DNA from: Myxococcota bacterium
Lineage (GTDB): Bacteria; Myxococcota; JACRCW01
NCBI GenBank assembly: GCA_040752415.1
Contig: JBFMGU010000102.1
Coordinates: 1 to 35,743, forward strand
Direction: 5' to 3'
DNA: 35,743 nucleotides
Translations under genes and position numbers: made by a program
The notes under the pieces: generated by a model
What the model saw: only the letters and a program-made list of their open reading frames with translations
What the model was told of the DNA's origin: nothing
Databases searched by the model: none
Shown: piece after piece, positions 1 through 33,706 of the stretch
Layout of the letters: every line of letters begins with the position of its first letter
Numbering within the stretch: the first letter of the stretch is position 1

Positions 1-114
1 CCTCCCCCTCCCGGGAAGTCAGTGGCACCGGGTCGACGGGTGCCCCCCGGTTTTCCGACGAGAAAATCGACAACCCACGGACTCCGCACCCGCTGACTTC
101 CCGGGAGGGGGAGG
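1..114. repeat. Inverted repeat / REP-like hairpin, probably truncated by the window edge
   Basis: Perfect 22-bp inverted repeat: CCTCCCCCTCCCGGGAAGTCAG (1-22) and CTGACTTCCCGGGAGGGGGAGG (93-114). The purine tract at 115-135 suggests the left arm continues before base 1. Confidence 0.8.
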
Positions 115-181
115 GGGATGGGGAGAGGGAGGGGGAACACCGCCTTTTGTACCGGTCAACCTGACCGGGCACCGTTGTAAG

Positions 182-487
182 GCGGGGACGGGCGTTTGCC
201 CCGACGCGAACCGCGCGCGCACGAGTGCCCCGGGACGCGCGCCAGGAGACCGCGGTCCGAAGACTCTCTCCGACGAGAAACCCTGCTCCGCGAGCTCCTG
301 CAAACCCGGCTGATACGTCCCGCGCCACTCGGATCATCGTGTGGCAGCCAACGGTGGCGGGGGGTAAGACTCATCGTCGGCAGGGTCCTGCTTCCGCACC
401 CGCCTCCCTGGTCACGGTCGCATCCTGCGTCCGGGCCCCCCACCAACACCACCGCAACTCCGCGCGCGTCGGGACGCCCGTCCCCGC
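182..487. repeat. Long imperfect fold-back (REPIN-like) element in the leader of the VTC operon
   Basis: Outer arms 182-208 and 465-487 pair over 14+9 bp with a 4-nt bulge. Nested stems 229-238/427-435, 248-252/415-419, 280-286/380-386 and 308-312/345-349 all centre near base 333. Confidence 0.65.
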
Positions 488-504
488 GCGCCTGACGGGT
501 CCTC

Positions 505-1299
505 ATGGCCGTCAACGAGAACCTGCTCGAGCGACGCGAGCACAAGTACCACCTGCCACCGCACCTGGTGCCCTACGTCAGGGAGACCGCGCTCTCGGTG
601 TGCAAGCTGGACAGCTACGCCGGACCGAACGGCTCCTACGCCATCCGCTCGCTCTACTTTGACACCGACCAGTACGCACTCTTCTGGGCCAATGACCACG
701 AGGTGTGCGACCGCTTCAAGGTGCGCGCCCGCATGTATCCCGGAGCCCAGGGCAAGGCCCCCGTGTTCCTGGAGGTCAAGCGCAGGGTCCTGGACGCCAT
801 CATCAAGACGCGGGGCGGGGTGCCGGCGGAGCAGTGGCAGGAGGTCATGTGCCATCCCAACGGGGAGGCCGCCTCACGCGTGGCGCCCAAGGCGCGGCGC
901 GCGGTGGAGCGCTTCAACTCGCTGGTGCACACCTATCACCTCAAGCCGGTGGTCCTGGTGGAGTACGACCGCGAGGCGTACGTCAGCACCGTGGACGACT
1001 ACGCGCGTCTCACCTTTGACCGACACATCCGCTGCCAGCTGAAGAGCACGCTGGACATGGAGGTGGACCCCAAGGCCTGGCGCCTGGTGGATGACCCCAT
1101 CCGCACCAAGTCCCTGGAGCCCATCACGCTGTTGGAGCTGAAGTTCGCCGGCCCGGCGCCACGCTGGATGATGAACATGGTCCAGCGCCTGGAGCTCATC
1201 CGCTATTCGTTCTCTAAGTATGGCTATAGCCTGGATGTCCAGCACTCCGTGCCGGGCGTCCGGATCCCCACCTATGATGAATGGAGGCTTGGAGCATGA
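505..1299 (+). CDS. VTC-domain polyphosphate polymerase family protein (CYTH/TTM-like tunnel fold)
   Basis: Motifs ERREHKY, IRSLYFDT, RFKVRARMY, FLEVKRR, VEYDREAY, RLTFD, LLELKF and FSKY are typical of bacterial VTC-domain proteins. Sits next to a DUF4956 gene, the usual context. Confidence 0.92.
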   Translation: MAVNENLLERREHKYHLPPHLVPYVRETALSVCKLDSYAGPNGSYAIRSLYFDTDQYALFWANDHEVCDRFKVRARMYPGAQGKAPVFLEVKRRVLDAIIKTRGGVPAEQWQEVMCHPNGEAASRVAPKARRAVERFNSLVHTYHLKPVVLVEYDREAYVSTVDDYARLTFDRHIRCQLKSTLDMEVDPKAWRLVDDPIRTKSLEPITLLELKFAGPAPRWMMNMVQRLELIRYSFSKYGYSLDVQHSVPGVRIPTYDEWRLGA

Positions 1300-1979
1300 T
1301 GGACTGGCTCGGGCCCCTGGGGCGGACGGACGTGGTGGACTGGCGTTCCGCCGCGCTGTCCCTGCTCCTGGCTTTTGCACTCACTCAGGCCATGGCCGCG
1401 GTGTATCTCTGGACCTTCCGCGGCCTGAGCTATTCGCGCAGCTTCGTCCACACCCTGGCCACCGTCAGCATCGTGGCCTGCACCCTGATGCTGGCCATTG
1501 GCAACAGCGTGGCGGCCGGCATTGGCGTGGCGGCGGGTCTGTCCCTGGTGCGCTTCCGCACGTCGCTGCGGGACCCCCGGGACATCCTGTTTGTCTTTGC
1601 CTCCCTGGCGGCGGGAGTGGCGTCGGGCCTGCAGGCCTACGGCGCGGCGCTGCTGGGAACCGGGATCTTCCTGGGCGCCGCCACGTTGCTGCACACCATC
1701 TCCTTTGGCGCGCGGTTCCAGTCCGACGGGCTGGTGCGTTTCTTTGCACCCAAGAGCCCGGAGGCGGAACAGGCCGTCTCGGAGATCCTGCGCACCCATA
1801 CCCGGAGCTTCGTCCTGGTGACGCTGCGCGCCGCAGCGCAGGACCAGCAGATGGAGCATGCCTACCAGATCAGCATCCCGGATCCCCGCCGTCGTGGCGA
1901 GCTGGTGGCGGCGCTCCAATCCATTGAAGGTGTCCGCGACGTCTCGCTCCTGATGCAGGAGCCCACGCTGGAGTTGTGA
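1296..1979 (+). CDS. DUF4956 family membrane protein (MgtC-like TM region plus C-terminal ACT-like domain)
   Basis: Signature GLSLVRFRT..RDPRDILFVF.S.A.G.ASG and about 5 hydrophobic segments. ATGA overlap with the VTC stop (1296-1299); GGAGG at 1283-1287. Confidence 0.9.
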   Translation: MMDWLGPLGRTDVVDWRSAALSLLLAFALTQAMAAVYLWTFRGLSYSRSFVHTLATVSIVACTLMLAIGNSVAAGIGVAAGLSLVRFRTSLRDPRDILFVFASLAAGVASGLQAYGAALLGTGIFLGAATLLHTISFGARFQSDGLVRFFAPKSPEAEQAVSEILRTHTRSFVLVTLRAAAQDQQMEHAYQISIPDPRRRGELVAALQSIEGVRDVSLLMQEPTLEL

Positions 1980-4099
1980 CTCCAATGAGCTGGCAGACTC
2001 GAATGAAGCTCTGGGTCCTGGGCCCATGGCTGGTGTTTGCAGCAACCGTTGCCGCAGTGGCCGTCCTCAACGGCGGCGTCGCTCCCACGCGTTCCGTGGT
2101 GGCGTTCGCGGAGGGCGTCCCGGAGGGCATTGCGCCGCTGGAAGCGGGTCGACTCGCCTCGCTCGCGGTGGAGCCGGGCCAGGACGTGGCGGAGGGTCAG
2201 GTGGTGGCCTGGCTGGATACCACCGCCCTGGATTCCGAGATCGCCGTGGTGGAGGCGCAACGCCAGCAGGCCCTGGCGCAGATGGGGGCGGTGGAGGCGG
2301 AGACCCGTCGGGAAGTCAGCCTGGACGAAAACAAGATGAAGCAGTGGCTATACGAGGCGCGGGTGGCGCTGGCGCGCGAGGAGGTGGCGCTGGCCAAGGC
2401 GCGTGCGCAGGAGAAGACGCTGCGCGCGGAGCGTGACCGTCTCAAGGAGTTGGTGCAGCGTCGCCTGGCGCCGGCAAGCGAGCTGTCCGCGGTGGAGGTG
2501 GAATACGAGGCCGCGGCGCGGGAGGCCGAAGCGCTGCCACCCATCATCGAGTCGCTGCGTCGTCAGCTGCACGGAGCCCAGCGCGAGCCGGGACGGGAAG
2601 GAGCCAACTACTGGACGGTGCTGGCGGTGCCGCTGCAACGCGAGCTGGAAGTGGTGGAACGTCAGCTCAGCTGGCTCAAGCAGCGTCGGGAGGGCCTGCG
2701 GCTGCGCGCGCCTTCCGCGGGCCGCATCCTGCAGGTGGTGAAGCGTCCCGGGGAGGTGGTGGCGGCGGGTGAGGCGGTGGCCATGCTCATCCGCCAGCAG
2801 GCCACGCGCGTGGTGGCGTGCGTCACCGAGCAGGACGCGGTCAACGTGCAGGAGGGCAACAAGGCCATGCTCTGGCCCCGCGGCGGGAGCGGGGAGGCCC
2901 TCAGCGGGCGGGCGGTGGCGCTGGGTCCGCTCGTCGACGAGCTGCCCGCGCGGTGTCGTCGGACGCCGCGGGTGCCGGTGTGGGGACGCAACGTGGTCAT
3001 CCAGCTGGACCAGCCGTCCCACATGCTCCCGGGCCAGGCCTTTGACGTGCGCTTCATGCCCGACGAGCAGGCTCCCCCGCCCCACGGCGTGGCGGCGGCG
3101 GCGTTGGGCGTCACTTCGGACTCCTTCGCGGGAGATGGCGTGCCCGGCGCGGCATCCCCGGGTGGCGCCGAGAAGGACCGCGTGCCCGCGCCGCTCGTCG
3201 TGGAGGTCCCCCCGGCGCTGGCGGAGAAGTACCACCTGGAGCCCAGCGGCCTGGCCTGGCGCGCGGACCTGGCGCGTTACCTGGTGGTGAGCGACGACAC
3301 CGGCTACTCCGACGACGACAAGCACGCGCCGGTGCTGTTCACGTTGTCCATGGACGGGCGCGTGGATCCCCAACCCACCGCGGTCTCGGGCGTCGACGAG
3401 CTCAATGACCTGGAGTCCATTGCGCCAGCGCCGGACGGTTCCATCTACGTGCTCTCCTCCCAGAGCGTGGCGCGCTCCGGGAAGCGCAAGCCCTCGCGCA
3501 CGGCGTTCCTGAAGCTGGTTCCCTCGGGAACGGGCCTGCGCGTGGCGGGGAAGGTGCACCTGGCGGACCTGCTGGATGGGCTGACTGCCGAGCAACTGAA
3601 GGCGCTGGGGCTCCCTGGGAACACCCGCGCCCTCGACGTGGAAGGCATGGCCTACTGGCAGGGCGCGCTCTACCTGGGCCTCAAAGGTCCCCTGGACGCG
3701 GAGGGCCGGACGGCCATCTGGCGCCTGGGCTCCCCGGATGTGCTGTTTGCCGGAGGCAAGGTGCAGGACGCCGGCCTTGGCCTGTGGGCCCGTGTCAAGC
3801 TGGACGCCGAGGTCGACGGCAAGCCCGCGCCCGGTGGCATCTCCGAGCTGCTCTTCCTTCCCGACGGGACACTGGTGGTGGCCTCCACGCCTTCGCAGGC
3901 GGAAGGTGGTCGCCAGACGGGTCGCCTGTGGGTGGTGCCGGAACCGCGTGCCGGTGAGCTGACCCCGCGCCTGGTGCACGACTTCCCCGGACTTCGTCCC
4001 GAGGGGTTGAGCCTTTCGCCGCACCCCGGCCGCCTCGCCGTGGTCTTCGACGAGGGCAGCGGCCATCCCAAGTGGATGGAACTTCCCTGGCCACGCTGA
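1976..4099 (+). CDS. HlyD-family membrane fusion protein fused to a C-terminal beta-propeller (DUF3616 / SdiA-regulated / phytase-like type)
   Basis: N-terminal TM helix, lipoyl half-motifs IAPLEAGRLASLAVEPGQDVAEGQVV and LRAPSAGRILQVVKRPGEVV flanking a coiled coil, barrel end LPGQAFDVRF. The C-terminal ~300 aa have repeated blade motifs EPSGLAW, VVSDD, DLESI, DVEGMA, PEGLS. GTGA overlap with the DUF4956 stop; ATGs at 1985 and 2003 are alternative starts. Confidence 0.8.
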   Translation: MTPMSWQTRMKLWVLGPWLVFAATVAAVAVLNGGVAPTRSVVAFAEGVPEGIAPLEAGRLASLAVEPGQDVAEGQVVAWLDTTALDSEIAVVEAQRQQALAQMGAVEAETRREVSLDENKMKQWLYEARVALAREEVALAKARAQEKTLRAERDRLKELVQRRLAPASELSAVEVEYEAAAREAEALPPIIESLRRQLHGAQREPGREGANYWTVLAVPLQRELEVVERQLSWLKQRREGLRLRAPSAGRILQVVKRPGEVVAAGEAVAMLIRQQATRVVACVTEQDAVNVQEGNKAMLWPRGGSGEALSGRAVALGPLVDELPARCRRTPRVPVWGRNVVIQLDQPSHMLPGQAFDVRFMPDEQAPPPHGVAAAALGVTSDSFAGDGVPGAASPGGAEKDRVPAPLVVEVPPALAEKYHLEPSGLAWRADLARYLVVSDDTGYSDDDKHAPVLFTLSMDGRVDPQPTAVSGVDELNDLESIAPAPDGSIYVLSSQSVARSGKRKPSRTAFLKLVPSGTGLRVAGKVHLADLLDGLTAEQLKALGLPGNTRALDVEGMAYWQGALYLGLKGPLDAEGRTAIWRLGSPDVLFAGGKVQDAGLGLWARVKLDAEVDGKPAPGGISELLFLPDGTLVVASTPSQAEGGRQTGRLWVVPEPRAGELTPRLVHDFPGLRPEGLSLSPHPGRLAVVFDEGSGHPKWMELPWPR

Positions 4100-4163
4100 T
4101 GGCTACGCGTGGCTAATCCTGACGAACTCCAGAGTGCGTGGGAGCGACTCCCTGGCGCAGCCC

Positions 4164-4685
4164 CTATGCCGCCGGGTGGGCGCGGTCCCGGTACGCCTGG
4201 ATGCGCTCCGCGCTGGCCAGCGCCTCCTCGGCGGTGCGCTTGACGGTTGGCCCGTCGTGGTGCGGAGCCAGCGGCACCGGGCGCGCGGCCGCCAGCTTCT
4301 CCACCACCCCGGGTGCTTCGTCACCCAGCAGCTTCTCGCACAGCTCGTAGAGGCCACCCGGCCCCTCCTCCAGCGCGTTGTGTTCCGCCAGGATGACGCG
4401 CACCTCCCGCACGATGTCCGACGACGGCGTGGGCACCAGCAGGCTGCTGATGGCGGCGTGCTCCACGCGCAGGCGGCGCGCATGGGGAACCACCTCACCC
4501 CGCAGACGACAGCGCAGCTCCGGCACCAGGATCTTCTCCTCCATGCCAATGTGGCGCAGGATCCCGCCGCGAAACGTCTCGAACGCCGCGTGATCAAAGG
4601 CGTGGGGATCCGCCACCGCGCGGTCCAGCAGCCGGTCCAGGCGCGCGTGGTCCTCCCGCATGAACTCAGTGATGGTGCCCGGCAT
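4164..4685 (-). CDS. Hemerythrin (HHE) domain protein
   Basis: H/HxxxE pattern DHARLD, RHIGMEE, EHAAI, EHNALEE. GGAGG upstream; overlaps the 3' end of ric by 20 bp. Confidence 0.85.
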   Translation of the reverse strand: MPGTITEFMREDHARLDRLLDRAVADPHAFDHAAFETFRGGILRHIGMEEKILVPELRCRLRGEVVPHARRLRVEHAAISSLLVPTPSSDIVREVRVILAEHNALEEGPGGLYELCEKLLGDEAPGVVEKLAAARPVPLAPHHDGPTVKRTAEEALASAERIQAYRDRAHPAA

Positions 4686-5373
4686 CGGCGCCCTCCGGCG
4701 GCTGGTGGCGCGGCATCAGCACGTGGTTCTCCAGGTGGACGTGCCGCAGGATGTCCTCCTCCATCTTCTCCAGCTCACCCAGCAGCGCCCGGTAGCTGCC
4801 GCAACCCCATTCCGGGACGGTGAAGTCGTCGGAGAGCGCGCGGATGCGTTGCAGCATCTCGCCCACCACGAGGTGATCACGGTGCATCTCGTGGAGCTCG
4901 CGCGCCACCACCTCCCGCGCGCCGGCGTTGGAGAGCAGCGCCGGAAACAGCACCTGCTCCTCGTGGTCCAGGTGGTCCAGCAGGAGGTTCACCAGGTCCC
5001 CGTAGGTCGCGTGCAGGTCGGGCAGCTTGGGGTTGTGCGCCCCGTGCACCCGCGCCACCTTGGACGCCATCTGGGCAATCCACGGAATGGCGCGACGCAG
5101 GTACGCATGGTGCCGCTCCACGATGTACGCAATCAGCGCCGACGACGTCATGGCGGCGAAGTCGCGGTCCTCCCCGCCGCGCCCCTCGTCAATCACCCGC
5201 TCCAGCTCGGCGTAGACCGCCTGCGCGTCCACGCCCTGGCTCCGGCACGCCTCCTCCACGCTGACGCCGCCGCGACAGCAGAAATCAATCCGGTGGTTCT
5301 GGAAGACCCGCGCGCACGTGGGGTGCGTGGCCACAATCTGCGCAACGGTCATGCTTCGGTCGAGTGTCTGCAT
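4666..5373 (-). CDS. ric: Iron-sulfur cluster repair di-iron protein (Ric/YtfE/ScdA/DnrN)
   Basis: N-terminal IDFCCRGG (ScdA_N/DUF542), then YIVERHHAYLR, KVARVHG, HLDHEEQVLFP, HVHLENHVL. Confidence 0.95.
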   Translation of the reverse strand: MQTLDRSMTVAQIVATHPTCARVFQNHRIDFCCRGGVSVEEACRSQGVDAQAVYAELERVIDEGRGGEDRDFAAMTSSALIAYIVERHHAYLRRAIPWIAQMASKVARVHGAHNPKLPDLHATYGDLVNLLLDHLDHEEQVLFPALLSNAGAREVVARELHEMHRDHLVVGEMLQRIRALSDDFTVPEWGCGSYRALLGELEKMEEDILRHVHLENHVLMPRHQPPEGADAGHHH

Positions 5374-5390
5374 CCCGCCTCCGTGGGTGA

Positions 5391-5404
5391 ATGATTTGCG
5401 TCAA
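5391..5404. promoter_or_regulatory. Putative FNR/DNR-type (Crp/Fnr family) box
   Basis: TTGACGCAAATCAT on the minus strand matches TTGAT-N4-ATCAA at 8/10 positions, 18-31 bp upstream of the ric start. Confidence 0.45.
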
Positions 5405-5405
5405 C

Positions 5406-5422
5406 TGCATTGCCTGTGCCGG
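5406..5422 (-). promoter_or_regulatory. Sigma-54 (-24/-12) promoter for ric-hemerythrin
   Basis: Minus strand CCGGCACAGGCAATGCA: GG-N10-GC with a GGCAC core, about 35 bp upstream of the ric ATG and beside a sigma-54 activator gene. Confidence 0.7.
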
Positions 5423-5474
5423 AGTGGTCGCGACGGGATCAGGACGGTTGCCGGGCCGTGATGTCATCCTTAGC

Positions 5475-5489
5475 GTTCCAGAGCGGAAC
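5475..5489. promoter_or_regulatory. Candidate enhancer (UAS) palindrome for the sigma-54 activator
   Basis: GTTCC-N5-GGAAC, about 80-95 bp upstream of the predicted ric start site and just upstream of the activator RBS. Confidence 0.35.
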
Positions 5490-5505
5490 TTCGAGGAACA
5501 TCAAG

Positions 5506-6525
<1,020 letters not shown>

Positions 6526-17946: not shown

Positions 17947-18229
17947 TGACCTTCGACTCCGCGAGGGTGGTGCCCTCCGAGCGCAGGCGCACGGTCGCCA
18001 CGTGGGTTGGGTTGGGAGGGCGTGTCCGGGGGGGCACGCGGAACAGCCGCTCAGGCACACGACGCGCGGCGCCGGAGGACCTCCCGAACGCAAGGTGTAT
18101 GACACTTTGTGAGGTTGCGGGGGCCCTCCGCCTCCGCGGGTGCCAGCGCAGTCCGACCGCCAACGCTCCCAACCAACCCACGCACCGCGCCGCCGCGCAG
18201 CCCAGCACCCGAGGGGGACGCGCAGGTCA
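17947..18229. repeat. Degenerate long fold-back element between the BON gene stop and the tetR promoter
   Basis: CGTGGGTTGGGTTGGGAG (18001-18018) pairs with CTCCCAACCAACCCACG (18166-18182). Nested stems 18054-58/18140-44, 18065-69/18134-38, 18073-78/18125-30 and 18089-98/18102-11; outer 17947-52/18224-29. Confidence 0.55.
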
Positions 18230-19684
18230 AATCCCGCCGCGCCCCCGCTTGCCCACGACGAGCTCGTTGTGCAGCCCCTTGGCGCCACAGCGCAGCGCGT
18301 GTTCCTGCGCCTCGCGCCAGGCCATCCAGCCGTCCACCCGGCCGGTCAGCGTCACCACGCCGTACTGCACATTGACCTCGACGGCGCTGGTGTCGGTGAA
18401 CGGACTCCACTGCAACGCGCTCTCCACGTTCTCACGGATACGCACGTCCGCCTCCGAGCTCCACGACTCACTGATCTTGAGCGCGTTGTGGATCCCCACC
18501 ACGCCGTTGATGTCCGCCGCCGCGCGCTCCGCCTCCTCGCGCTCGAACTGGCTGTCCACCTCGCCAGTCAGCGTCACGATCCCGTCGTAGAGCGACCAGC
18601 TTACCTCCGTCGGGTCGACGTACGGCTGGAAGGCCATGGCGCGCTCCAGGCGGGTGCGCAGCTCCGCGTCGGTGACACGTCGCGCGGGCTGCAGCGTCAC
18701 GCTGTTCTCCACGCGCCAGATCCCCGGCGTGTTGCGCGCCACCTCTTCCGCCGCCAGCCGCGCCTGTGCGTTGTCGACGACGCCCATGACCCGCGCCAGC
18801 CCACCCGCCACCGTCGCCTGCAGCTCATAGGGCGCCAGCCGCGGGTCCCGCTGGAATGACACGTGGAGGAAGTCGGTGAGCTCCTCCGCCGTGGGCTCGG
18901 CCACCGGGTGACGACGCTGCAGCTCGGCGCCCCACCCGAAGTCCACCTCCAACCGCGAGGCATCCACCTCCCGCACACCTTCCACCCACGCCAGCTCCGC
19001 GGCGCGCTGCTTCTCCACCGCGCTGCCCACGCTCCCGCTGAGCAGGACCCGGCCCTTCTTGACGTCCACCTCCACGAGCGCGTCGTTCAGCCAGCCGGAC
19101 AGGCGGAAGGTGTGTGCAATGTCCCGGCGGGTCTCCTCGTCAAAGCGGAACGTCTGGCTCTCCAGCAGCGTCATGCGGTCTTCCAGGGCGGTGATGCCCT
19201 TGATGCCCGACACCGTGTCCAGCACCAGCGCACGCGCGCGTCGACCGGGCACCGGGCCGTGCAGCGTCACCACGCCGTCACGCACCTCCGCGCGCAGGCC
19301 GTAGCGGTGGAGCGTGGGATTGAGCGTCAACACCTGGAGCACGTCGGCACGGATGGTGTCGTCGGGACGGCGGGGGACGACCATGCGAATGCGGTCCACC
19401 ACGCCGCGCACGCCGCGCACGCTCCGGGCAATCTGGAGGGCGGCGTTCCGCGCGCGCAGGTGCTGGGCCTGCCCGGTGAGCGTGACCACGCCACCCTGGG
19501 TGTCGACGTCAATGAGGAACGACGTCACCGCCGGGTCCGCCGCCAGCCGACGATGCACCGCCAGCGAGATGGCCTCGTCCGGGTAGACGCGGGTGGCGTG
19601 GGCCAGGGATTCCGCGTCGGCGCGCGCGGAGAGCAGCAAGAGCACCGCGGACGCAACCGCGGCCTTCAGCGACCGGGATGACAT
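18227..19684 (-). CDS. Periplasmic multi-BON domain protein (about 6 BON repeats, OsmY-like)
   Basis: Signal peptide ending ARADA; repeated (D)GVVTLTG.V ... A....GV..V.N.L units. Confidence 0.92.
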   Translation of the reverse strand: MSSRSLKAAVASAVLLLLSARADAESLAHATRVYPDEAISLAVHRRLAADPAVTSFLIDVDTQGGVVTLTGQAQHLRARNAALQIARSVRGVRGVVDRIRMVVPRRPDDTIRADVLQVLTLNPTLHRYGLRAEVRDGVVTLHGPVPGRRARALVLDTVSGIKGITALEDRMTLLESQTFRFDEETRRDIAHTFRLSGWLNDALVEVDVKKGRVLLSGSVGSAVEKQRAAELAWVEGVREVDASRLEVDFGWGAELQRRHPVAEPTAEELTDFLHVSFQRDPRLAPYELQATVAGGLARVMGVVDNAQARLAAEEVARNTPGIWRVENSVTLQPARRVTDAELRTRLERAMAFQPYVDPTEVSWSLYDGIVTLTGEVDSQFEREEAERAAADINGVVGIHNALKISESWSSEADVRIRENVESALQWSPFTDTSAVEVNVQYGVVTLTGRVDGWMAWREAQEHALRCGAKGLHNELVVGKRGRGGI

Positions 19685-23623: not shown

Positions 23624-26329
23624 TCACTCCACCAGGCCCACGGTCTGTTCGTCGCGGGTGACGTAGACCAGGCGCGTGCCCTGGGGATCCATGCGCAGCC
23701 CCACCGGCGTGCCCGCCACCTTCACCTGTGAGAGGCTGCGCAACCGCATCTCGTCGCCCTCACCTTCAATCGCGAACTCGATGATGTTCCCTTCCGTGCC
23801 CGCGTAGAGACGACGCCCGTCGGGCGAGGCCACCAGCGGGACCTGGGAGAACGGCGCGTCCGCCTCCAGCACGCGGTAGACCGGCTGGCGCGCCGCATCC
23901 ACGTCGAGCAGCCCCAGCTCGAACGAGAAGCTCTGCAGCTTGAAGAACACGCCCAGGAGGCCGCCGCCGGGCAGGATGGCGCCGGACATGGGGAAGAGCG
24001 CCTGCTCGGCCAGCTCCACCGGCGTGCCACCCGAGACGTCCCACGTGCGCAGGAAGAACGGCACCGCCTCCCCCGGCCGCTGCTCGACGATGTAGAGCAC
24101 CTCCCGCACCGGGTCGTGGAGCCCCTGCAACGCGTTGCACGCCACCAGCGTTCCCGACGAGCCATCGCGCGGCACCAGCTCCACCCAGTCCGCCTCCGCA
24201 CCCACCGCCGCCTGCTGGCACGCGTTCCCGTTGTTGTTGGCCACGCCGAAGTAGTGCACCAGCGCGAACTCCTCCGTGACCACGCGCGGCAGCGCGCCCG
24301 TCACCCACACATCGGGGAGACCCAGCCGGGTGCTCTCCTTGCCAAAGTCGGCGCCGGTGGCGGTGACGTCGTAGCGGAGCAGGTCCACCTGGTAGAAGTT
24401 GGTTCCCGCCACGGTCTGCACATTGCGCGGCTGGGCGGCCCACACCGCCGCGGGAGCGCCCCGCTCGTCGGTCTCCACCGCCGCGGAGTAGGGCATGCGC
24501 ACCAGGCGCGAGGACAACACCTGCCCCGAGCTGTCCGCGTGCATGAGCATGGTGGGGTAGATGACGAGGACACCGCCGCGCTCACGGGACATGGGCCACG
24601 CATCCCACGGCGCGCCGAGCACCGAGGCGGAGCGCACCAGGGTGCCGTTGCGGTCCAGCACGTCGACACGGCCACCACTCTCCGGGATGGCGTAGAACGT
24701 GGGAGTCACCGGGTCCACGTGCAGCGCCGCATACATGGTCCGCGTGGGGACGATCTGCATGGTGTCCTGCTGATTGAACATCCACAGCTCGGCGCGCGGC
24801 TCACCGTAGAGGCGGGGCACCACCGCCACCGTGGAAGCGGCGAGGTTGCAGTCCGGCAGCGCCGCGGCGGTCACCGCGCGGAAGACCTGCGAGGTGAGCT
24901 CCACGACGTACGGCTGGCCCAGCGCGTCGAACACCGCGCACACCGGTTCGTTGGCGGGCGCCACCGGGGACAGCGGACGCATGGGCACCGCCACCATTGC
25001 ACCGGTGTAGAAGGGCACCAGCTCCATGGGCGTCTCACTGGCAACCTCGCCGCGCCCCGCGAAGTAGCTCGCGCAGCGCGCGCATCCCTCGTCGCCGGGC
25101 GCGCACGGTTGGAGATCCACCGGTCCCACCTGCTGCGCCTCCGGCAACACCTCGCCTGTCGTGGCGTCGACCAGCAGCACGCGCAGGCGCACCCCGCCCT
25201 GCAGCGGACGGCGTGACAGGTGCGCCACCATGGACAGCCCCGGCGCCGCCAACCACGAGCCCGGCAACACGCCCGCCGCCAACGGAAGCTCCCCCGGGAA
25301 GGTCTGCACCACCTCGCCCGGCCCGTCGGCGTCGTACGCCTGCAGCGAGTAGGCAAAGCCCACGCCGTCGCTGCTGACGCCCAGCGCCAGCGCCTTCTCC
25401 GGCGTCACCAGGAGGTACGGCAAGATGATGTTGCCGGCCAGCGTGCTGGCATTCAGCACCTCCTGGCCCGCGCCCAGCAGGTGCGTGCGGAAATGCGTGG
25501 CAGTCAGGTCCAGCGTCACGCCCTCGTGCACCAGCACGCCGGGCTGCGCGTCGGCCTCGTCGGGCCAGGAGAAGGTGCTGGGGGAGGCGTAGGGGATGGC
25601 GGCGTGGCTGAGACGCGCGAACTCGTCGTTGCGCAGCGCCGGGAGCTGGCCCACCTCGCTGTAGCCCACCAGCGGATACACGCGCGCCTGGTAGATGGGG
25701 TCGTTCACCGCGAAGGTGGAGCCCAGGCCGAAGGTGACCGCCACCGCGCCCTGCGTCTCCGCCGCCACACGACACGCGGGATCCTGCACGGGCAGCACAC
25801 CTCCGTCGGGGTTGGGAGGAAGACCGCAGGGAAGACCGGTGGCGGGGTTGATGGGGGCGCACTGCGCGGAGCCCACGCCCGACGCCATGATCACCAGCCG
25901 GGGCTCGGCCTCGCCGATGAACGAGGGCGCGGGGGGATGGCCCACGCCGAGGTAGCAGAAGGATTGTACGTACGGCTCGCTGGCGCGCGGACCGGAGAGC
26001 ACGGTGATCTCACCCTCGGGCAGGTCCGCGGGCACCACCGCGCGCAGCTCTTCCGTCGTCACGCCCTCCAGGTCCAGCTCGATGCTCCCCACGCGCAGGC
26101 GCACCGTGGCCACGTCCCAGCCTCCGCCGGTGACCACCAGCGTGTCGCCCGCGTAGGCGCAGGGCCTGGCGGTGCCGCCGTCGCCACCCAGGCTGCGCTC
26201 GGCCACCGTGACGTGCTCGATGTGGGGACGCGGGCCTGCGTCGTCACGTTCCGCGGAAGGCAGGAGCACGCGCGGACAACCCGTGCCCAGGATGACGACG
26301 ACACCCAACGTGGCTGCAACGTTCCTCAT
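23624..26329 (-). CDS. Large lipoprotein with an N-terminal IPT/TIG-like Ig domain and a probable beta-propeller region
   Basis: ATG 26329 after GAGG; lipobox ILGTGC; GDTLVVTGGGW...LRAVVP (IPT-like); C-terminal blades VASPDGRRLYAG and MDPQGTRLVYV. Ends 3 bp before the monooxygenase start. Confidence 0.75.
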   Translation of the reverse strand: MRNVAATLGVVVILGTGCPRVLLPSAERDDAGPRPHIEHVTVAERSLGGDGGTARPCAYAGDTLVVTGGGWDVATVRLRVGSIELDLEGVTTEELRAVVPADLPEGEITVLSGPRASEPYVQSFCYLGVGHPPAPSFIGEAEPRLVIMASGVGSAQCAPINPATGLPCGLPPNPDGGVLPVQDPACRVAAETQGAVAVTFGLGSTFAVNDPIYQARVYPLVGYSEVGQLPALRNDEFARLSHAAIPYASPSTFSWPDEADAQPGVLVHEGVTLDLTATHFRTHLLGAGQEVLNASTLAGNIILPYLLVTPEKALALGVSSDGVGFAYSLQAYDADGPGEVVQTFPGELPLAAGVLPGSWLAAPGLSMVAHLSRRPLQGGVRLRVLLVDATTGEVLPEAQQVGPVDLQPCAPGDEGCARCASYFAGRGEVASETPMELVPFYTGAMVAVPMRPLSPVAPANEPVCAVFDALGQPYVVELTSQVFRAVTAAALPDCNLAASTVAVVPRLYGEPRAELWMFNQQDTMQIVPTRTMYAALHVDPVTPTFYAIPESGGRVDVLDRNGTLVRSASVLGAPWDAWPMSRERGGVLVIYPTMLMHADSSGQVLSSRLVRMPYSAAVETDERGAPAAVWAAQPRNVQTVAGTNFYQVDLLRYDVTATGADFGKESTRLGLPDVWVTGALPRVVTEEFALVHYFGVANNNGNACQQAAVGAEADWVELVPRDGSSGTLVACNALQGLHDPVREVLYIVEQRPGEAVPFFLRTWDVSGGTPVELAEQALFPMSGAILPGGGLLGVFFKLQSFSFELGLLDVDAARQPVYRVLEADAPFSQVPLVASPDGRRLYAGTEGNIIEFAIEGEGDEMRLRSLSQVKVAGTPVGLRMDPQGTRLVYVTRDEQTVGLVE

Positions 26330-26432
26330 GGGCAACCTCAGCTCCGTTCTCCTGGCCATCCCACGCCGAGGTTGCTTCCGTCCACGGCGCGCGGGGCTGA
26401 CGTGGGCCCCCGTCTCCGCGCACAATAGCGCC

Positions 26433-26954
26433 GTGACCACGCCGTACGATCCGCTGGCATCCCACCGGGAAACCCCGGCGCGCGCTCCGTCGCTGCTGGC
26501 GGTGGACCTGGGCATGCGCTCGGGCCTGGCGGTCTACGGTGACGACGGGAAGCTGCTCTCCTACCGCTCGCAGAACTTTGGCACGCCCGCCCGCCTCCGA
26601 CGTGCCGTGCCCCAGGTCCTGTCCGCGCTTCCCACGGTGCGCTGGCTGTTCATGGAGGGAGACCGCAACCTGGCGGCCATCTGGGAGAAGACCGCGGAGA
26701 AGCGGGGCATCACCTGTCGCACCGTGGGAGCGGAGACCTGGCGCGCCATGCTGTTGCTCTCCCGGGAGCAGCGCTCCGGTCCCCTGGCCAAGCAGAGCGC
26801 GGACAAGGTGGCGCGACAGGTGATCGCCTGGTCGGACGCGCCCCGGCCCACCTCGCTCAATGACGACGTGGCGGAGGCCATCCTGCTGGGTCTGTGGGGC
26901 GCGCGGGAACTGGGCTGGCTTCCCGGCGACGCACCGTGGCGCTCCGTGCGCTGA
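26433..26954 (+). CDS. RNase H / RuvC-fold hypothetical protein
   Basis: LLAVDLGMRSGLAVYG, FMEG, AETWR and DDVAEAILLG reproduce the D-E-D/E acidic pattern of RuvC/YqgF-like folds. Start (GTG 26433) uncertain. Confidence 0.65.
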   Translation: MTTPYDPLASHRETPARAPSLLAVDLGMRSGLAVYGDDGKLLSYRSQNFGTPARLRRAVPQVLSALPTVRWLFMEGDRNLAAIWEKTAEKRGITCRTVGAETWRAMLLLSREQRSGPLAKQSADKVARQVIAWSDAPRPTSLNDDVAEAILLGLWGARELGWLPGDAPWRSVR

Positions 26955-26955
26955 A

Positions 26956-29295
26956 TCAGCGGCCGTCGCACTCCAGCGTGCCGCAGGTCCACTGGCCGTT
27001 GATGCAACCAGAGCCCACGTAGGTGCACCCGTCGGGCGGAGCCGCGCAGTCGGGGACCGGGCCTTCACACGTCGAGCAGACGAGATCGCCGCAGGTCCAC
27101 GCCCCGTTCACGCATCCGCCGCCCACGTACTCGCAGCCGGGCGGGGGCGCCGCGCAATCCGGCACCGGGCCGGGACACACGCCGCAGTGCAGGTCGCCAC
27201 ACGTCCACGCGCCGTTGACGCAGCCGGCGCCCACGTATTCGCACCCGTCGGGCGGAGGCGCGCAGGCGGGCGGGTCTCCGTCGCACACCGCGCACACCAG
27301 CTGGCCACAGCTCCAGTTCCCATTCACGCAGCCGCCGTTCTCGTAGTGGCATCCGTCGGGCGGCGCGGCGCACGGCGGGAGCGGGCCGCTGCACACGTCA
27401 CAGACCAACGCGCCGCAGGTCCACTGCCCGTCGACACAACCCGCGCCGTCATGACGACACCCCTCGGGCGGCGCGGCGCAATCCGGCGGCGGACCGTCGC
27501 ACGCCTCACAGACCACGTGACCGCAGGTCCAGTGCCCGTCGACGCATCCCGCGCCGTCATAGAAGCACCCCGGCTCCGGCTCGGCGCACACCGGTTGATC
27601 GCCGGCACACACCTCACAGACCAGGTGACCGCAGGTCCACGCGCCGTTCACGCAACCCGCACCGTCGTAGAAACAGCCTTCCGGCGGCGCGGCGCAATCC
27701 GGGATGGGCCCGTCACAGTAGCCGCAGTGCAGCTCGCCGCACGTCCACACGCCGTCGACGCAACCGCCGCCCACGTACTCACAACCCGGCGGCGGCGCGG
27801 CGCAGGACACGGGCTCACCGGTGCACTCGTGGCAGACGAGGTCGCCGCAGGTCCACGCGCCGTTCACGCAACCACCGCCCACGTACCCACAACCCGGCGG
27901 CGGCGCGGCGCAATCGATGACGGGGCCAGGGCACACGTCACAGACGAGGTCACCACAGGTCCACTGTCCGTTCACGCAGCCGCCGTCGACGTAGTGGCAT
28001 CCTTCCGGCGGCGCGGCGCAGTCCACGGGCATCCCTTCGCACACGTCGCAGACGAGGTCACCGCAGGTCCACGCGCCATTCACGCAGCCGCCGCCCACGT
28101 AGTGACATCCCTCCGGCGGCGCGGCGCAGTCGGGGATGGGGCCGCTGCACACGTTGCAGTGGAGGTCGCCGCAGGTCCACTCCCCGTTGACGCAACCACC
28201 GCCCACGTACTCGCAGCCGTCGGGGGGAGCGGCGCAATCCACGGGAGGGCCGTCGCACGTCTCGCAGACCAGGTCACCGCAGGTCCACGTACCGTCGACA
28301 CAACCACCGCTGCGGTAGTTGCACCCCTCGGGCGGAGGAGCGCAGGGCGGCAGCTCACCGGTGCAGACGTTGCAGACGAGGTGGCCACACGTCCAGGCAC
28401 CATTCACGCAGCCGCCACCGTCGTAGAAGCAGCCCTCCGGCGGTGCCGCGCAATCCGGGATGGGACCGGAGCAATACTCGCAGCTCAGCTCGCCGCAGCT
28501 CCAGCGTCCCTCGACGCAACCTCCACCGACGTAGGTGCACCCCTCCGGCGGAGCCGCGCAGGCGGGCATCTCGCCGTTGCACACGTCGCAGACCAGGTGG
28601 CCGCAGGTCCACGCGCCGTTGACGCAACCCGCGTCGACGTAACGGCATCCCTCCGGCGGCGCGGCGCACCCGGGCATCTCGCCGCCACAGGTGTCACAGA
28701 CCACGTCGCCACAGGTCCACGCGCCGTTCACACACCCGCCGCCACGGTACTCACAACCCTCGCCCGCGGGCTCGCACGTCACCGGCTCGCCGGGACAGGT
28801 GGCGCAATGCAGGTCGCCGCAAGACCATTCCCCGTCGACACAACCGCCGCCCAGGTACTCGCATCCGTCGGGCGGCGCGGCGCAGTCGGGCGGGGTGCCG
28901 GTGCAGCTGTCGCAGATGAGCTGACCGCAGGTCCATTCTCCATTCACGCAACCCGCGCCCTCGTAGGTGCAGCCCGGCGGCGGCGCGGCGCAGTCGATCA
29001 CCGGACCATCACAGCCACCACCGGAGCTGGACGAGCTGGAGGACGAAGCTTCACCGCTGGAGCTGCCCGACGACGAGCCGGTGCCGCCGGAGCTGGACGT
29101 GCTGCCCACGCTGGAGGACTCTCCCGACGACGACGAGGACGTGCTCCCGCTCTCCCCCGACGACGAACTCGACGACGCCGCCGCACCACTGCTGCTGCTG
29201 GTCTCCTCCACCCCGGTGGTCCCGCTGCTGCCACACGCCGACGTCACCAACGCCGCCGCAACCATCCACCAACGCCAACCCGGCTCCATGCGCAT
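26956..29295 (-). CDS. Lipoprotein with a Ser-rich stalk and 19 tandem 36-aa six-cysteine repeats
   Basis: AGGAGGAGG RBS; lipobox LVTSAC; ~70-aa Ser/Gly linker; repeat consensus C-x-G-x3-(D)-CAAPP(E/D/P)GC-x-Y-x-GGGCV(N/D)G-x-WTCG-x-L-x-C-x2. Confidence 0.9.
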   Translation of the reverse strand: MRMEPGWRWWMVAAALVTSACGSSGTTGVEETSSSSGAAASSSSSSGESGSTSSSSSGESSSVGSTSSSGGTGSSSGSSSGEASSSSSSSSGGGCDGPVIDCAAPPPGCTYEGAGCVNGEWTCGQLICDSCTGTPPDCAAPPDGCEYLGGGCVDGEWSCGDLHCATCPGEPVTCEPAGEGCEYRGGGCVNGAWTCGDVVCDTCGGEMPGCAAPPEGCRYVDAGCVNGAWTCGHLVCDVCNGEMPACAAPPEGCTYVGGGCVEGRWSCGELSCEYCSGPIPDCAAPPEGCFYDGGGCVNGAWTCGHLVCNVCTGELPPCAPPPEGCNYRSGGCVDGTWTCGDLVCETCDGPPVDCAAPPDGCEYVGGGCVNGEWTCGDLHCNVCSGPIPDCAAPPEGCHYVGGGCVNGAWTCGDLVCDVCEGMPVDCAAPPEGCHYVDGGCVNGQWTCGDLVCDVCPGPVIDCAAPPPGCGYVGGGCVNGAWTCGDLVCHECTGEPVSCAAPPPGCEYVGGGCVDGVWTCGELHCGYCDGPIPDCAAPPEGCFYDGAGCVNGAWTCGHLVCEVCAGDQPVCAEPEPGCFYDGAGCVDGHWTCGHVVCEACDGPPPDCAAPPEGCRHDGAGCVDGQWTCGALVCDVCSGPLPPCAAPPDGCHYENGGCVNGNWSCGQLVCAVCDGDPPACAPPPDGCEYVGAGCVNGAWTCGDLHCGVCPGPVPDCAAPPPGCEYVGGGCVNGAWTCGDLVCSTCEGPVPDCAAPPDGCTYVGSGCINGQWTCGTLECDGR
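26959..29013 (-). repeat. Coding tandem repeat, 19 x 108 bp
   Basis: Counted from the translation: 19 units of 36 codons with no indels. Confidence 0.9.
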
Positions 29296-29410
29296 GCGCA
29301 CCCTCCTCCTGACAGAACGGAGGATAGCGGTTGCCCCGGCGCACATGAAGGTGTTGGCGGATGATCCGTGGCTGCGGACGCGCATCCGCTGCGTGGTCAT
29401 CCGATTCGAA

Positions 29411-30247
29411 TCAGCCGGTCAGGGCGAGCAGGTTCTTGACCTCGCGCACGCCGTAGACCGCGCGGGTCAGCTCTTCGGCCAGGTTCCTGCTCTCCAGGTC
29501 TGGCACGGTGCCACGCAGCGTGACGAAACCCTCGACCACGCCCACCTCGACATTGGACGCGTCGATCTCGGTGTGGTCGCTGAGCTCCTCGTGGACCTTC
29601 TGCTGGATGAACTCGTCGGTGGCGTCGCTGCGCAGGTGACGACGGGGAATGCGGTCCCTGACCACGGGTGGCTCCCAGGTGGGGCTGTTGGAGAGTCCGC
29701 TGCCGGTGTCGCCCATGCGTCCGTCGTCGACGCGATCCAGGCTGGCCTGCTCGAAGCTGAGCGGGTCGTTGGGGACGTGCTCCATGTCGTCGCGCAGGAA
29801 GCCGGCACGCCCGGAGCGGTCCATGCCCTGGTCATCCTCGCTGCGCCAGGTGCCCTCGCCCAGCTGCTGGCCATAGTTGTCCTGGTAGTCGAGCTTGCTG
29901 TCATACCCGCGCGGGTGGCGCCCACCGCCCACGAAGTCCACCTCGGGCTCGCCCGGCGGGATCACGCCCTCGTCCTCCAGGAGCTCCGCCTGCGCCACGC
30001 TCTCCTCGCGCTCGTCGGCGTCGTACTCCTCACCAAAGCGCTCCTGCTCGTCGTAGTCGGGGTCCAGGAGGATGCCGTCGGCGGGAACGCCAAGCTCGTC
30101 GGTGCGCATCCTGAGGTCATGCTCCTCGGTCCGGCGCTGCTCCACCAGGTCGCGGTGGAATTCCTCGTGCGGGCGGCCGCTGGACGGTGAGCCCACCTGG
30201 CGCGGGTCACGTCGTGGCGCTTCAGGGCCGGGAGCCTGGCTCTTCAT
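29411..30247 (-). CDS. Single C-terminal BON domain protein with a long acidic disordered N-terminus
   Basis: DEFIQQKVHEEL...IDASNVEVGVVEGFVTLRGTV...AVYGVREVKNLL; no signal peptide. GAGGT before ATG 30247. Confidence 0.85.
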   Translation of the reverse strand: MKSQAPGPEAPRRDPRQVGSPSSGRPHEEFHRDLVEQRRTEEHDLRMRTDELGVPADGILLDPDYDEQERFGEEYDADEREESVAQAELLEDEGVIPPGEPEVDFVGGGRHPRGYDSKLDYQDNYGQQLGEGTWRSEDDQGMDRSGRAGFLRDDMEHVPNDPLSFEQASLDRVDDGRMGDTGSGLSNSPTWEPPVVRDRIPRRHLRSDATDEFIQQKVHEELSDHTEIDASNVEVGVVEGFVTLRGTVPDLESRNLAEELTRAVYGVREVKNLLALTG

Positions 30248-30364
30248 GGCGCACCTCATCCCCCTCGCACGCGATGTGTCGAGCACATCCCCGTCATGCA
30301 AGTGGCGCGCGGCGCCAACGCGGACGGGAGCGCGGGGCGGTGCATCAGGCCGGGTTCAAGCAGG

Positions 30365-33300: not shown

Positions 33301-33577
33301 CAATGGTGTGCAGCTCCGGGAACTCGAACGTGCAACCGCTCACCTGCCAGCGCGCCACGCCGGGGCCTCCCACCTGTCCCTCGTCGACACGCGAGGCCAG
33401 CACCTGGGGACTCTTGAAGCCGCAGCGCGTGTCGGAGTCCAGCAGGGACACCAGTGTGGCGGCGTTGCGGACGGTGAGACGCGCCACGCCCATGCCCACG
33501 CGGTCCGGGAAGAGACGCTCCGGCTGACAGCCCCCCGTGACGACGCACAGCAGCAGCCCCCAACGCACCGCCCGCAT
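30365..33577 (-). CDS. Large lipoprotein made of four ~260-aa tandem domains of unknown family
   Basis: GGAGG before ATG 33577; lipobox VVTGGC. Repeats begin (A/G)RL(T/L)V..., with D..CGF.S, RGI.TG...PVVP, G.CSISTP, N.L.G and L(D/N)PD(Y/F)...S..C (some motifs diverged in unit 4). Confidence 0.85.
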   Translation of the reverse strand: MRAVRWGLLLCVVTGGCQPERLFPDRVGMGVARLTVRNAATLVSLLDSDTRCGFKSPQVLASRVDEGQVGGPGVARWQVSGCTFEFPELHTIARNCNDVETQAVGRVTLDAVKSLRGILTGNPESAVVPDGPDAIAFDVVARFDGYEVRISGKDTALKNTTGELAFTGRPHLAVSASRGVCSISTADFTLEGLRYRNAAVEMESEGRRFPVDVPSSDYSAQAGKWADKENWIGGSIQVWDAKVSIPTAEDTNQLDPDYDAATSVKSISCKEDLLLPPTYDCAPLPERFAEAGARLTVSTFGKLVSMVNEDTRCGFASAGVKSGVRTDGALGKAGGEAIYTLGQPCTLELTEPTTIATDCLGAETVVQGRVTVTGTKSVRGILTGSSTDPVVPVTRDPATLTIQATFDDFTMKRVDLDRGLQILRGTLAGSMSPRTGRDVTTGACSISTPVVSFTDLTYANADLLIHSGASRIGLHVNSSSLDAQSGSGTEHTNWLEGTMVVDGQSIAVPMAASGTVLDPDYAEETFTASYECTPNLELVDNDAACSLNPRLAEGVGRLTVGTFGKLVGLVADDTTCGFMSPRVLETVSVQGAVGERGGMVVYNISEPCTLRFNVPTDVDQDCLGTRTYVSGVAVVTGTKTVRGIITGDPTTPVVPTSRDPAEVRLTALLADFRITDSETRHLTMHQATLTGVAKPRTAQDQLTGACSISTPVVEFQDVRLSDSDVQLFSDGKTFSLHVADANLDAVNGSTDGRTNFLAGTVDIDGQTHTVPLQGNALNPDFNPTSFNASYACIPNMRLAETEAQCSMTRTLAEGAARLLVQTVGTVARRVNLDSDCGFESTFVLINPSEVQGEPGEMGLMSWDISQCELASESDEVLQEDCLGGRYHQRGTAVVDASRTVRGERETKLLFIDSIIPRDRNAVQVTLSNVEAAELSIYYVDPGRSDPRRKLTIHSGTITANIQPVLGERESEHGVFDVSTPISQLSAVTLTDADVTLFSEGKTFHLQIPQATVNAFNGSYSGHSNELEGTVLLWGETVDIPPSALNPDFSQDWFDRTYSCTEDLRSVVPPN

Positions 33578-33706
33578 CCACGACCTCCGCGACCACATCG
33601 TGACGCGAGCGTTGCCTACGCATTTCCAGGAGGCAAGCGCGAGCGACGAGAGCGGGCACGTTTCGAGACGTCCCACGGCGCGGTCGGCTACAACCCGCAC
33701 GTGGCC

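Follow-up and report, generated by a model that had tools for sequence, protein, structure and literature searches.

Bacterial polyphosphate (polyP) is generally regarded as a product of PPK1 and PPK2 that stays in the cytoplasm, which leaves open how it could get to the envelope or leave the cell. Three genes that bear on this question were found at positions 505 to 4099 of the first 35,743 bases of contig JBFMGU010000102.1 (this whole stretch is referred to below as the window), which comes from the 11-Mb genome, with about 70% G+C, of a Myxococcota bacterium (assembly GCA_040752415.1). A first-pass annotation of this DNA had described three overlapping genes for a soluble VTC polymerase domain, a DUF4956 protein with approximately five transmembrane (TM) segments, and an HlyD-type adaptor fused to an acidic β-propeller. 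It had further proposed that, with no pump in the operon, these genes make up a split bacterial VTC that synthesizes polyP and sends it across the envelope. Open reading frames (ORFs), the Pfam scan, and TM prediction bear out the gene-by-gene description, including the fused propeller, the acidity of which is only mild. The feature is confirmed as real and strongly conserved, and its first interpretation is partly supported. In this type of operon, a VTC-type polymerase is combined, in the absence of a pump, with a duct system of the TolC type, an arrangement that, as far as searched, is uncharacterized in print; the open-access and bioRxiv literature yielded no paper in which an adaptor or TolC is linked to DUF4956 or to a bacterial VTC. 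New here is the fusion of the propeller to the adaptor in this lineage; in this genome, the channel gene is missing.

Domain architectures of the operon products

The three genes, all on the forward strand, form a single translationally coupled operon. As read directly, the stop codon of the VTC-domain gene (505 to 1299, 264 amino acids [aa]) overlaps the ATG of the DUF4956 gene in an ATGA at 1296 to 1299, and the DUF4956 stop codon overlaps the GTG of the third gene in a GTGA at 1976 to 1979; GGAG(G) motifs closely precede both overlapping starts. The DUF4956 frame runs to position 1979 from 1281 (232 aa) or from the ATG at 1296 (227 aa), and the third gene (1976 to 4099) encodes 707 aa, with alternative later ATG starts possible at 1985 and 2003. 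The operon ends at three genes, being followed by two reverse-strand genes of the hemerythrin type (4164 to 5373). The Pfam scan detected no ABC, RND, or MFS genes anywhere in the window, in line with the pump-free operon claimed at first pass, and no CotH, Pel, or glycan synthesis genes.

The first protein matches the VTC family (PF09359) with an E value of 1.1e-38 and 133.5 bits against a cutoff of 23. This match, which covers residues 10 to 243, is the only one in Pfam: the 264-aa protein contains no SPX domain and, with no TM segment predicted, appears to be soluble. A PDB search with the single sequence returned only chance-level matches, and the yeast proteins were barely matched. When 32 homologues encoded in related loci were combined into a profile, however, it matched the yeast Vtc4 structure 3g3q with an E value of 3.4e-16 over profile positions 5 to 248. 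According to the available part of a cryo-EM preprint on the yeast VTC complex (10.1101/2023.01.27.525886), the triphosphate- and Mn-contacting residues needed for cellular polyP are K200, R264, R266, K281, Y359, R361, E426, S457, and K458, the last of which is the single residue of these that is missing from the inactive paralogues Vtc2 and Vtc3. In the profile alignment to 3g3q, all nine have counterparts in the window protein (K14, R74, R76, K92, Y154, R156, E211, S237, and K238, respectively), and eight of the nine are invariant across the 32 homologues. Because these nine substrate and metal residues are kept, including the K458 equivalent, the protein looks like an active Vtc4-type triphosphate tunnel enzyme and a candidate polyP polymerase, so that polyP would be its expected product. 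It is encoded by the only VTC gene of the genome. Since the genome also carries PPK1 and PPK2, VTC may be an extra source of polyP with a dedicated, specialized role.

The second protein matches DUF4956 (PF16316; E value of 1.3e-11, 45 bits against a cutoff of 30.6). Its structural model (pLDDT 83) has five TM helices, at residues 16 to 40, 48 to 68, 72 to 87, 94 to 111, and 115 to 134, followed at residues 145 to 220 by a C-terminal β-α-β-β-α-β domain. In a structural search, the latter domain matched ACT domains with Z scores of 9 to 11 and the C-terminal domains of MgtC proteins (2lqj and 7qa5) with Z scores of 9.0 and 8.7. All 37 DUF4956 homologues matched PF16316, and 8 of these 37 also gave weak matches to the MgtC family (PF02308), with the best E value at 1.5e-4. 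As modeled, the protein is MgtC-like, with five predicted TM helices and an ACT-like domain; in the available part of a 2025 report (PMC12345266), a streptococcal DUF4956 homologue is likewise described as an MgtC TM region plus an ACT domain. Single-sequence searches of PDB with DUF4956 gave only chance-level matches, a profile search of PDB gave nothing meaningful, and Foldseek with the model found nothing at an E value of 0.001 or below. The conserved basic loops (TFRGLSYSR and RFRT..RDPRD), together with the ACT domain, can be expected to face the cytoplasm, following the positive-inside rule.

The adaptor part of the third protein (1976 to 3088) comprises a short cytoplasmic tail, a TM anchor (about residues 10 to 38, nucleotides 2003 to 2089), a lipoyl domain, a long helical hairpin, and a β-barrel. 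It matches HlyD_3 with an E value of 1.5e-8 and 35.7 bits against a cutoff of 22.2. All 14 NCBIfam adaptor models that it matched remained under their cutoffs, the best being the DevB family (56.5 bits against 129). The full-length hairpin is retained here even without an adjacent gene of the TolC family (OEP); its 162-aa segment equals the median of the relatives that have a TolC-like gene. The adaptor is followed by a linker rich in Pro, Ala, and Gly (3089 to 3196), which corresponds to gapped and unconserved alignment columns (about 396 to 470) and varies in length among the relatives.

The periplasmic C-terminal domain (3197 to 4099, 300 aa) was modeled as a five-bladed β-propeller with a pLDDT of 94.9 and a pTM of 0.93. 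It is acidic only to a mild degree, with an isoelectric point of 5.3 and 38 Asp and Glu residues versus 30 Lys and Arg. The closest structure is that of Escherichia coli YjiK (3qqz; Z score of 20.2, root mean square deviation of 2.9, 215 aligned residues), followed by bacterial glutaminyl cyclases (Z scores of 17.3 to 17.6) and the human Ca-activated nucleotidase SCAN (2h2n; Z score of 16.7). No phytase was among the 50 structural matches listed, and Foldseek with this domain returned only generic propellers. At the sequence level, the full third protein is barely over the cutoff for the phytase-like family PF13449 (E value of 2.6e-6, 28.0 bits against 27.6). Among the propeller homologues, 39 of 40 match PF13449 and 11 of 40 match DUF3616. 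The domain is therefore best placed in the superfamily of YjiK (SdiA-regulated), phytase-like, and DUF3616 propellers; its sequence kin, the phytase-like, DUF3616, and DUF6910 families, are all functionally uncharacterized. Classical β-propeller phytases, in contrast to the five-bladed domain seen here, have six blades. Invariant acidic residues at the starts of the inner strands of several blades (domain residues E15, D71/E73, E149, and E269) might form a central metal site, as in other propellers.

Gene neighborhoods of the adaptor and of DUF4956

The fused adaptor-propeller protein has relatives in 28 clusters among 5.8 billion proteins and was seen in 109 of the species genomes scanned, nearly all of them from Myxococcota according to their record titles. 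For the neighborhood counts, 80 loci were kept, and profiles built from the relatives were searched against all open frames of these loci; the denominators below are the numbers of loci with enough flanking DNA. Both adaptor and propeller are present in 76 of the 80 loci. DUF4956 is encoded directly upstream of the adaptor in 71 of 74 loci, and a TolC-family (OEP) gene lies directly downstream of it in 59 of 69, leaving 10 loci without one. The VTC gene stands immediately ahead of DUF4956 in 36 of 64 loci and just past the OEP gene in another 17, so that it is adjacent in either arrangement in 53 of 64. A CotH kinase gene is found within 8 kb in 28 of 54 loci, and a gene for a 690-aa PPDK_N-type protein in 21 of 54. 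The same gene order is seen in Polyangia, Nannocystis, Haliangiales, Bradymonadia, and further lineages, with protein identities of 26 to 48%. As the arrangement recurs in the large majority of the 80 loci, it cannot be attributed to chance, and the operon is the Polyangia-type version of a conserved cassette that consists of VTC, DUF4956, an HlyD-type adaptor, and, mostly, a TolC-like channel.

No pump recurs in these neighborhoods. Pfam analysis of 88 neighbor proteins from 29 loci identified 20 OEP, 11 CotH, 8 lamin-tail, and 6 PPDK_N proteins but not a single ABC, RND, or MFS protein, and no ORF of the 80 loci contains a Walker A motif paired with an ABC signature. Polytopic ORFs in the 80 loci are unrelated one-offs, including antiporters and others; AcrB, MMPL, and MFS proteins are each encoded in a single locus, where they are not co-oriented or not adjacent. 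Because DUF4956 is encoded upstream in 71 of 74 loci and no pump recurs, the assignment of DUF4956 as the inner membrane partner of the adaptor is well supported by gene context. The first-pass annotation thus anticipated correctly that the trio would prove conserved and that the adaptor would travel with DUF4956 rather than with a pump. It had no knowledge of the TolC-like gene downstream in most relatives. The absence of CotH, which it had named as a trait to survey for, is not typical of the family, given the CotH genes near half of the related cassettes and the seven CotH genes in the same genome, all located on other contigs, one of which is the contig that might join the start of the window (an unproven join, see below). 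Genes of the pst/phoU type are absent from the vicinity of the cassette in all 80 relatives.

The remaining 11 of the 64 loci have no VTC gene, and a PPDK_N-like protein occupies the upstream place there. In all five genomes with such loci that were tested, exactly one VTC gene is encoded elsewhere, and in four of the five, all from Sorangium, it heads a second VTC-DUF4956-adaptor cassette. These Sorangium genomes have two cassettes, one with VTC and the other with the 690-aa PPDK_N protein at the VTC position. In this protein, the PPDK_N ATP-binding domain makes up the C-terminal half, and nothing in Pfam matches the N-terminal 370 aa. DUF4956 is also lacking from three of the Sorangium loci of the PPDK_N type. 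In one relative, adaptor and propeller are found in separate frames of 367 and 386 aa, which could be either a real split or a frameshift.

Starting from DUF4956 gives a different picture. DUF4956 is present in 71 of 151 genomes sampled from the phylum, and 73 loci had room downstream; an adaptor gene directly follows DUF4956 in 15 of them. These 15 comprise the window itself, three further loci, and 11 of 40 other loci, but none of the 30 best-scoring loci; a propeller is present in at least 3 of the 15. In nine adaptor-less loci that were scanned, the downstream genes are unrelated, save for one weak match to CotH. In many of the sampled genomes, mostly of 9 to 10 Mb, about 2 kb separates VTC and DUF4956, and no adaptor follows. 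Three other genomes of the phylum have sets of DUF4956, adaptor, and OEP genes without a propeller. In the class to which the window belongs, one genome encodes VTC, DUF4956, a propeller-less adaptor, and OEP; in this genome, a stand-alone propeller gene lies on a separate contig, adjoining a PPDK_N-like fragment and a second OEP gene. Since only 15 of 73 DUF4956 loci carry an adaptor, the duct is an add-on to VTC-DUF4956, and the propeller is a further add-on. The set of VTC, DUF4956, and adaptor named at first pass is, accordingly, conserved as seen from the adaptor, but VTC-DUF4956 in the phylum is mostly adaptor-less.

A possible export route and its alternatives

The observed gene structure, domains, catalytic residues, predicted topology, and pump-free gene order suggest polymerization-driven export of polyP by this operon, a reading that we favor tentatively, at somewhat less than an even chance. 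In the scheme that follows, we infer every physical contact as well as the role of the propeller. The soluble VTC protein would dock on the cytoplasmic face of DUF4956 and, like yeast Vtc4, build polyP from the γ-phosphate of ATP. The growth of the chain would push the polymer from the cytoplasm through a DUF4956 oligomer, with no need for an ABC, RND, or MFS motor. The membrane-anchored adaptor would form a periplasmic tube above DUF4956 and connect to an outer membrane channel, here necessarily encoded elsewhere in the genome. Tethered by its flexible linker to the end of the adaptor nearest the membrane, the propeller probably binds the chain via a metal as it emerges, or cuts it. Secreted CotH-type kinases, often encoded nearby in the relatives, would be the likely users of the exported polymer. 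A more elaborate version of this scheme is less likely than not: an envelope-spanning secretion machine, in which the growing polymer is threaded by a Vtc4-like enzyme through a pore of oligomeric, MgtC-like DUF4956 and on into an adaptor/TolC-type duct dedicated to it. Metal-binding propellers arranged as a ring at the base of this duct would grip the polymer or gauge its length, and secreted CotH kinases, working where ATP is absent, would use the exported polyP as a scaffold or as their phosphoryl donor.

A conserved pump-free operon in which a yeast-type polymerase is linked to an adaptor for a duct offers a direct, testable route for polyP export. If the proposed route is correct, it would represent a new class of bacterial export systems and provide the first function for DUF4956 and for YjiK-like propellers, both of which are widespread. 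It would also mean that a polymerase can take the place of a transporter in feeding ducts of the TolC type, and it may explain how secreted CotH kinases are supplied with a phosphoryl donor.

Several findings weigh against polymerization-driven export. The use of DUF4956 as a conduit for polyP is the weakest link of the scheme. Its TM helices carry no conserved charges, so that passage of polyP would require an oligomer, its kinship is with MgtC, and we know of no MgtC-family proteins that act as channels. The TM part matched no solved structure, although the wide structural search hit only the C-terminal domain and barely probed the TM part. At E values of up to 1, none of the 37 DUF4956 homologues matched the family of the yeast VTC membrane domain; at these settings, the idea of a split VTC gives way to that of an MgtC-like protein with an ACT domain. 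The adaptor family is a dedicated partner of DUF4956, yet in most lineages VTC-DUF4956 works without an adaptor, and VTC itself is missing from the adaptor loci in which a PPDK_N-like protein takes its place. The open-access and bioRxiv literature searched contained neither an enzyme assay nor a genetic experiment in which a bacterial VTC was tested for polymerase function. In Streptococcus intermedius, the available part of a report (PMC12345266) describes lowered Pel-dependent aggregation upon deletion of the DUF4956 or the CotH homologue and reports no such drop for the VTC homologue. A co-fold of adaptor residues 1 to 400 with DUF4956, both given as alignments, scored 0.06 against a mark of 0.32 and counts neither way.

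The outer membrane step is also affected. No TolC-like gene is present in the window, and the gene next to the operon encodes an unrelated hemerythrin on the other strand. The genome encodes no OEP protein of the cassette type (the best E value with a cassette OEP protein as query was 2.2e-4), and the best match to the cassette OEP profile (E value of 3.2e-29) is found on a contig beside another adaptor; nine ordinary TolC-like candidates are present in the genome. Because a cassette-type channel gene is lacking, export past the periplasm in this organism is something that we infer only from the relatives and the intact hairpin, and the first-pass notion of transfer across the envelope is weakened.

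This lack of a channel gene makes it worth considering that, in this organism and perhaps in general, VTC-DUF4956 delivers polyP no farther than the periplasm or the periplasmic surface of the inner membrane. Instead of a duct, the adaptor-propeller protein would then be a membrane-tethered periplasmic protein that binds or cleaves polyP, for instance in phosphate storage, in metal buffering, or in the supply of envelope enzymes. Such an arrangement, which we consider unlikely, would fit the 10 related loci that likewise have no TolC-like gene, as well as the adaptor-less majority of VTC-DUF4956 sets in the phylum. The propeller, with its phytase-like Pfam match and, among its fold neighbors, the Ca-dependent nucleotidase 2h2n that cuts phosphoanhydrides, would suit it too, as would the porin O/P, pst-phoU-like, and purple acid phosphatase-like genes at a contig end that shares a repeat with the window, although the join is unproven (see below). 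It fits poorly, however, with the TolC-like gene in the same gene string in 59 of 69 related loci and with an adaptor hairpin of the full length used to reach an outer membrane channel. Moreover, many bacteria share one TolC among several systems. It seems improbable that the system is a pump for a cargo other than polyP (a phosphorylated glycan, for example, or a small molecule or a substrate of CotH), with VTC supplying energy or a phosphoryl group by splitting a nucleoside triphosphate or triphosphate rather than by making a long polymer. Other triphosphate tunnel enzymes are hydrolases or cyclases, and the PPDK_N-type ATP-binding protein that replaces VTC beside DUF4956-adaptor in some Sorangium loci suggests interchangeable cytoplasmic phosphotransfer modules. 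The proximity of the module to Pel polysaccharide genes in Gram-positive bacteria, noted in the available part of one source (PMC7112168), and the streptococcal mutant phenotypes mentioned above point the same way. The full set of Vtc4 residues in the window protein, among them the lysine by which the active polymerase differs from its inactive paralogues, and the lack of glycan synthesis genes in the window argue against it.

Still less credence can be given to a regulatory role, in which DUF4956 acts like MgtC, its ACT domain sensing a metabolite to control VTC or phosphate homeostasis, and the adaptor-propeller protein has a separate role in the envelope, with no translocation. HlyD-class adaptors require an inner membrane partner, and a purely regulatory DUF4956 would leave unexplained an adaptor family tied to it in nearly all loci, usually with a TolC-like gene and with no other membrane protein. 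The MgtC-like TM region, the ACT fold, and the absence of a charged lining from the TM helices are what a regulator might be expected to have, and MgtC is described, in the available part of PMC12345266, as acting on ATP synthase and PhoR and not as a transporter. That the three genes are chance neighbors with unrelated functions can be practically dismissed: the stop and start codons overlap, the order recurs across lineages at the identities given above, and the conservation counts already contradict it.

Polymerization-driven export would have features in common with several known systems. The eukaryotic VTC complex (yeast Vtc4/Vtc3/Vtc1; 3g3q, 7ytj, and 8i6v) shares with the operon a homologous tunnel domain with the nine residues kept, a genetic tie to a small membrane protein, and, as proposed here, the logic of coupling synthesis to membrane passage. 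It differs in that the window enzyme is a free protein with neither SPX nor TM helices of its own, its membrane partner is an MgtC-like protein with five TM helices and an ACT domain instead of the Vtc1-type domain with three TM helices, and the system operates in a two-membrane envelope with an adaptor and, usually in the relatives, a channel of the TolC type. Tripartite efflux and type I secretion systems, which combine an HlyD-, EmrA-, or DevB-type adaptor with a TolC-like channel and a pump, resemble the cassette in the TM anchor, lipoyl domain, hairpin, and barrel of the adaptor and in the frequent TolC-family gene. Here, by contrast, there is no ABC, RND, or MFS partner, the NCBIfam adaptor models score below their cutoffs, a propeller is attached at the C terminus, and no channel gene is adjacent. 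Synthase-dependent secretion of alginate (Alg8/Alg44/AlgE) is similar in that an inner membrane polymerase drives export with an adaptor-like protein (Alg44 has an adaptor-like periplasmic domain) and an outer membrane pore, without a separate pump. The polymers and the protein families are unrelated, so the resemblance is one of logic only.

The MgtC family shares the C-terminal ACT-like fold and the weak PF02308 matches with DUF4956, which nevertheless forms a Pfam family of its own, has its own conserved basic cytoplasmic loops, and is always paired with VTC or the adaptor. The same pair of VTC and DUF4956 is found, along with cotH, among the accessory genes of Gram-positive Pel loci, with VTC called "polyphosphate polymerase," in the available parts of two papers (Whitfield et al. 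2020, PMC7112168; and, for S. intermedius SIR_1592-1594, PMC12345266). CotH genes provide a further parallel, being common near the related cassettes and present elsewhere in this genome. The Pel-bearing hosts, however, have a single membrane, their genes are attached to Pel, and no adaptor or channel is involved, whereas the window has neither CotH nor Pel genes. In the part available of one of these two papers, the CotH-VTC-DUF4956 trio is stated not to be found outside Pel loci, a statement contradicted by the loci found here.

The host genome and flanking DNA

Apart from the genes discussed above, the genome encodes one DUF4956 protein, one fused adaptor, and one stand-alone orthologue of the PPDK_N-type protein. 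No convincing gene was found in bases 1 to 504 of the window, where about 390 gene-free bases separate a terminal repeat from the operon. A promoter scan of positions 1 to 5500 revealed no sigma-70-like promoter, and terminator-like sites in this region are no more frequent than in shuffled sequences.

Downstream of the operon, the region from 4164 to 6525 contains the two reverse-strand hemerythrin-domain genes, one of which is ScdA-like with a DUF542 N terminus; they are arranged head to head with a sigma-54 activator gene (5410 to 6525). Farther along, the reverse-strand genes at 18227 to 19684 and at 29411 to 30301 encode proteins with six BON domains and one BON domain, respectively. Beside and between them lie three large ORFs of 963, 814, and 1153 aa (23624 to 33826) with no Pfam match at an E value of 1e-6.

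The first base of the window is the contig end, and positions 1 to 114 are occupied by a palindromic dispersed repeat with 25-nucleotide arms at 1 to 25 and 90 to 114. The arm occurs seven times in the genome, twice near contig ends. The element has a mirrored flank that extends to about base 175, and related copies are found at the ends of contigs C46 and C261 and on contigs C401 and C484; it seems to interrupt the assembly. Contig C46 ends in 59 bases that are identical to window positions 1 to 59 at 58 of 59 sites, and the C46 flank mirrors window bases about 115 to 175, as expected for two halves of one palindrome. The tail of C46 (55000 to 71533) encodes a 1131-aa protein with CotH and lamin-tail domains, a purple acid phosphatase-like protein, porin O/P, a PstS-like protein, an ABC ATPase, and PhoU. 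A near-identical element lies inside C484, and the overlap of 59 nucleotides compares with the usual 127 of this assembly, so the join of C46 to the start of the window is left as an unproven lead. A real join would place the operon immediately downstream of a phosphate uptake cluster.

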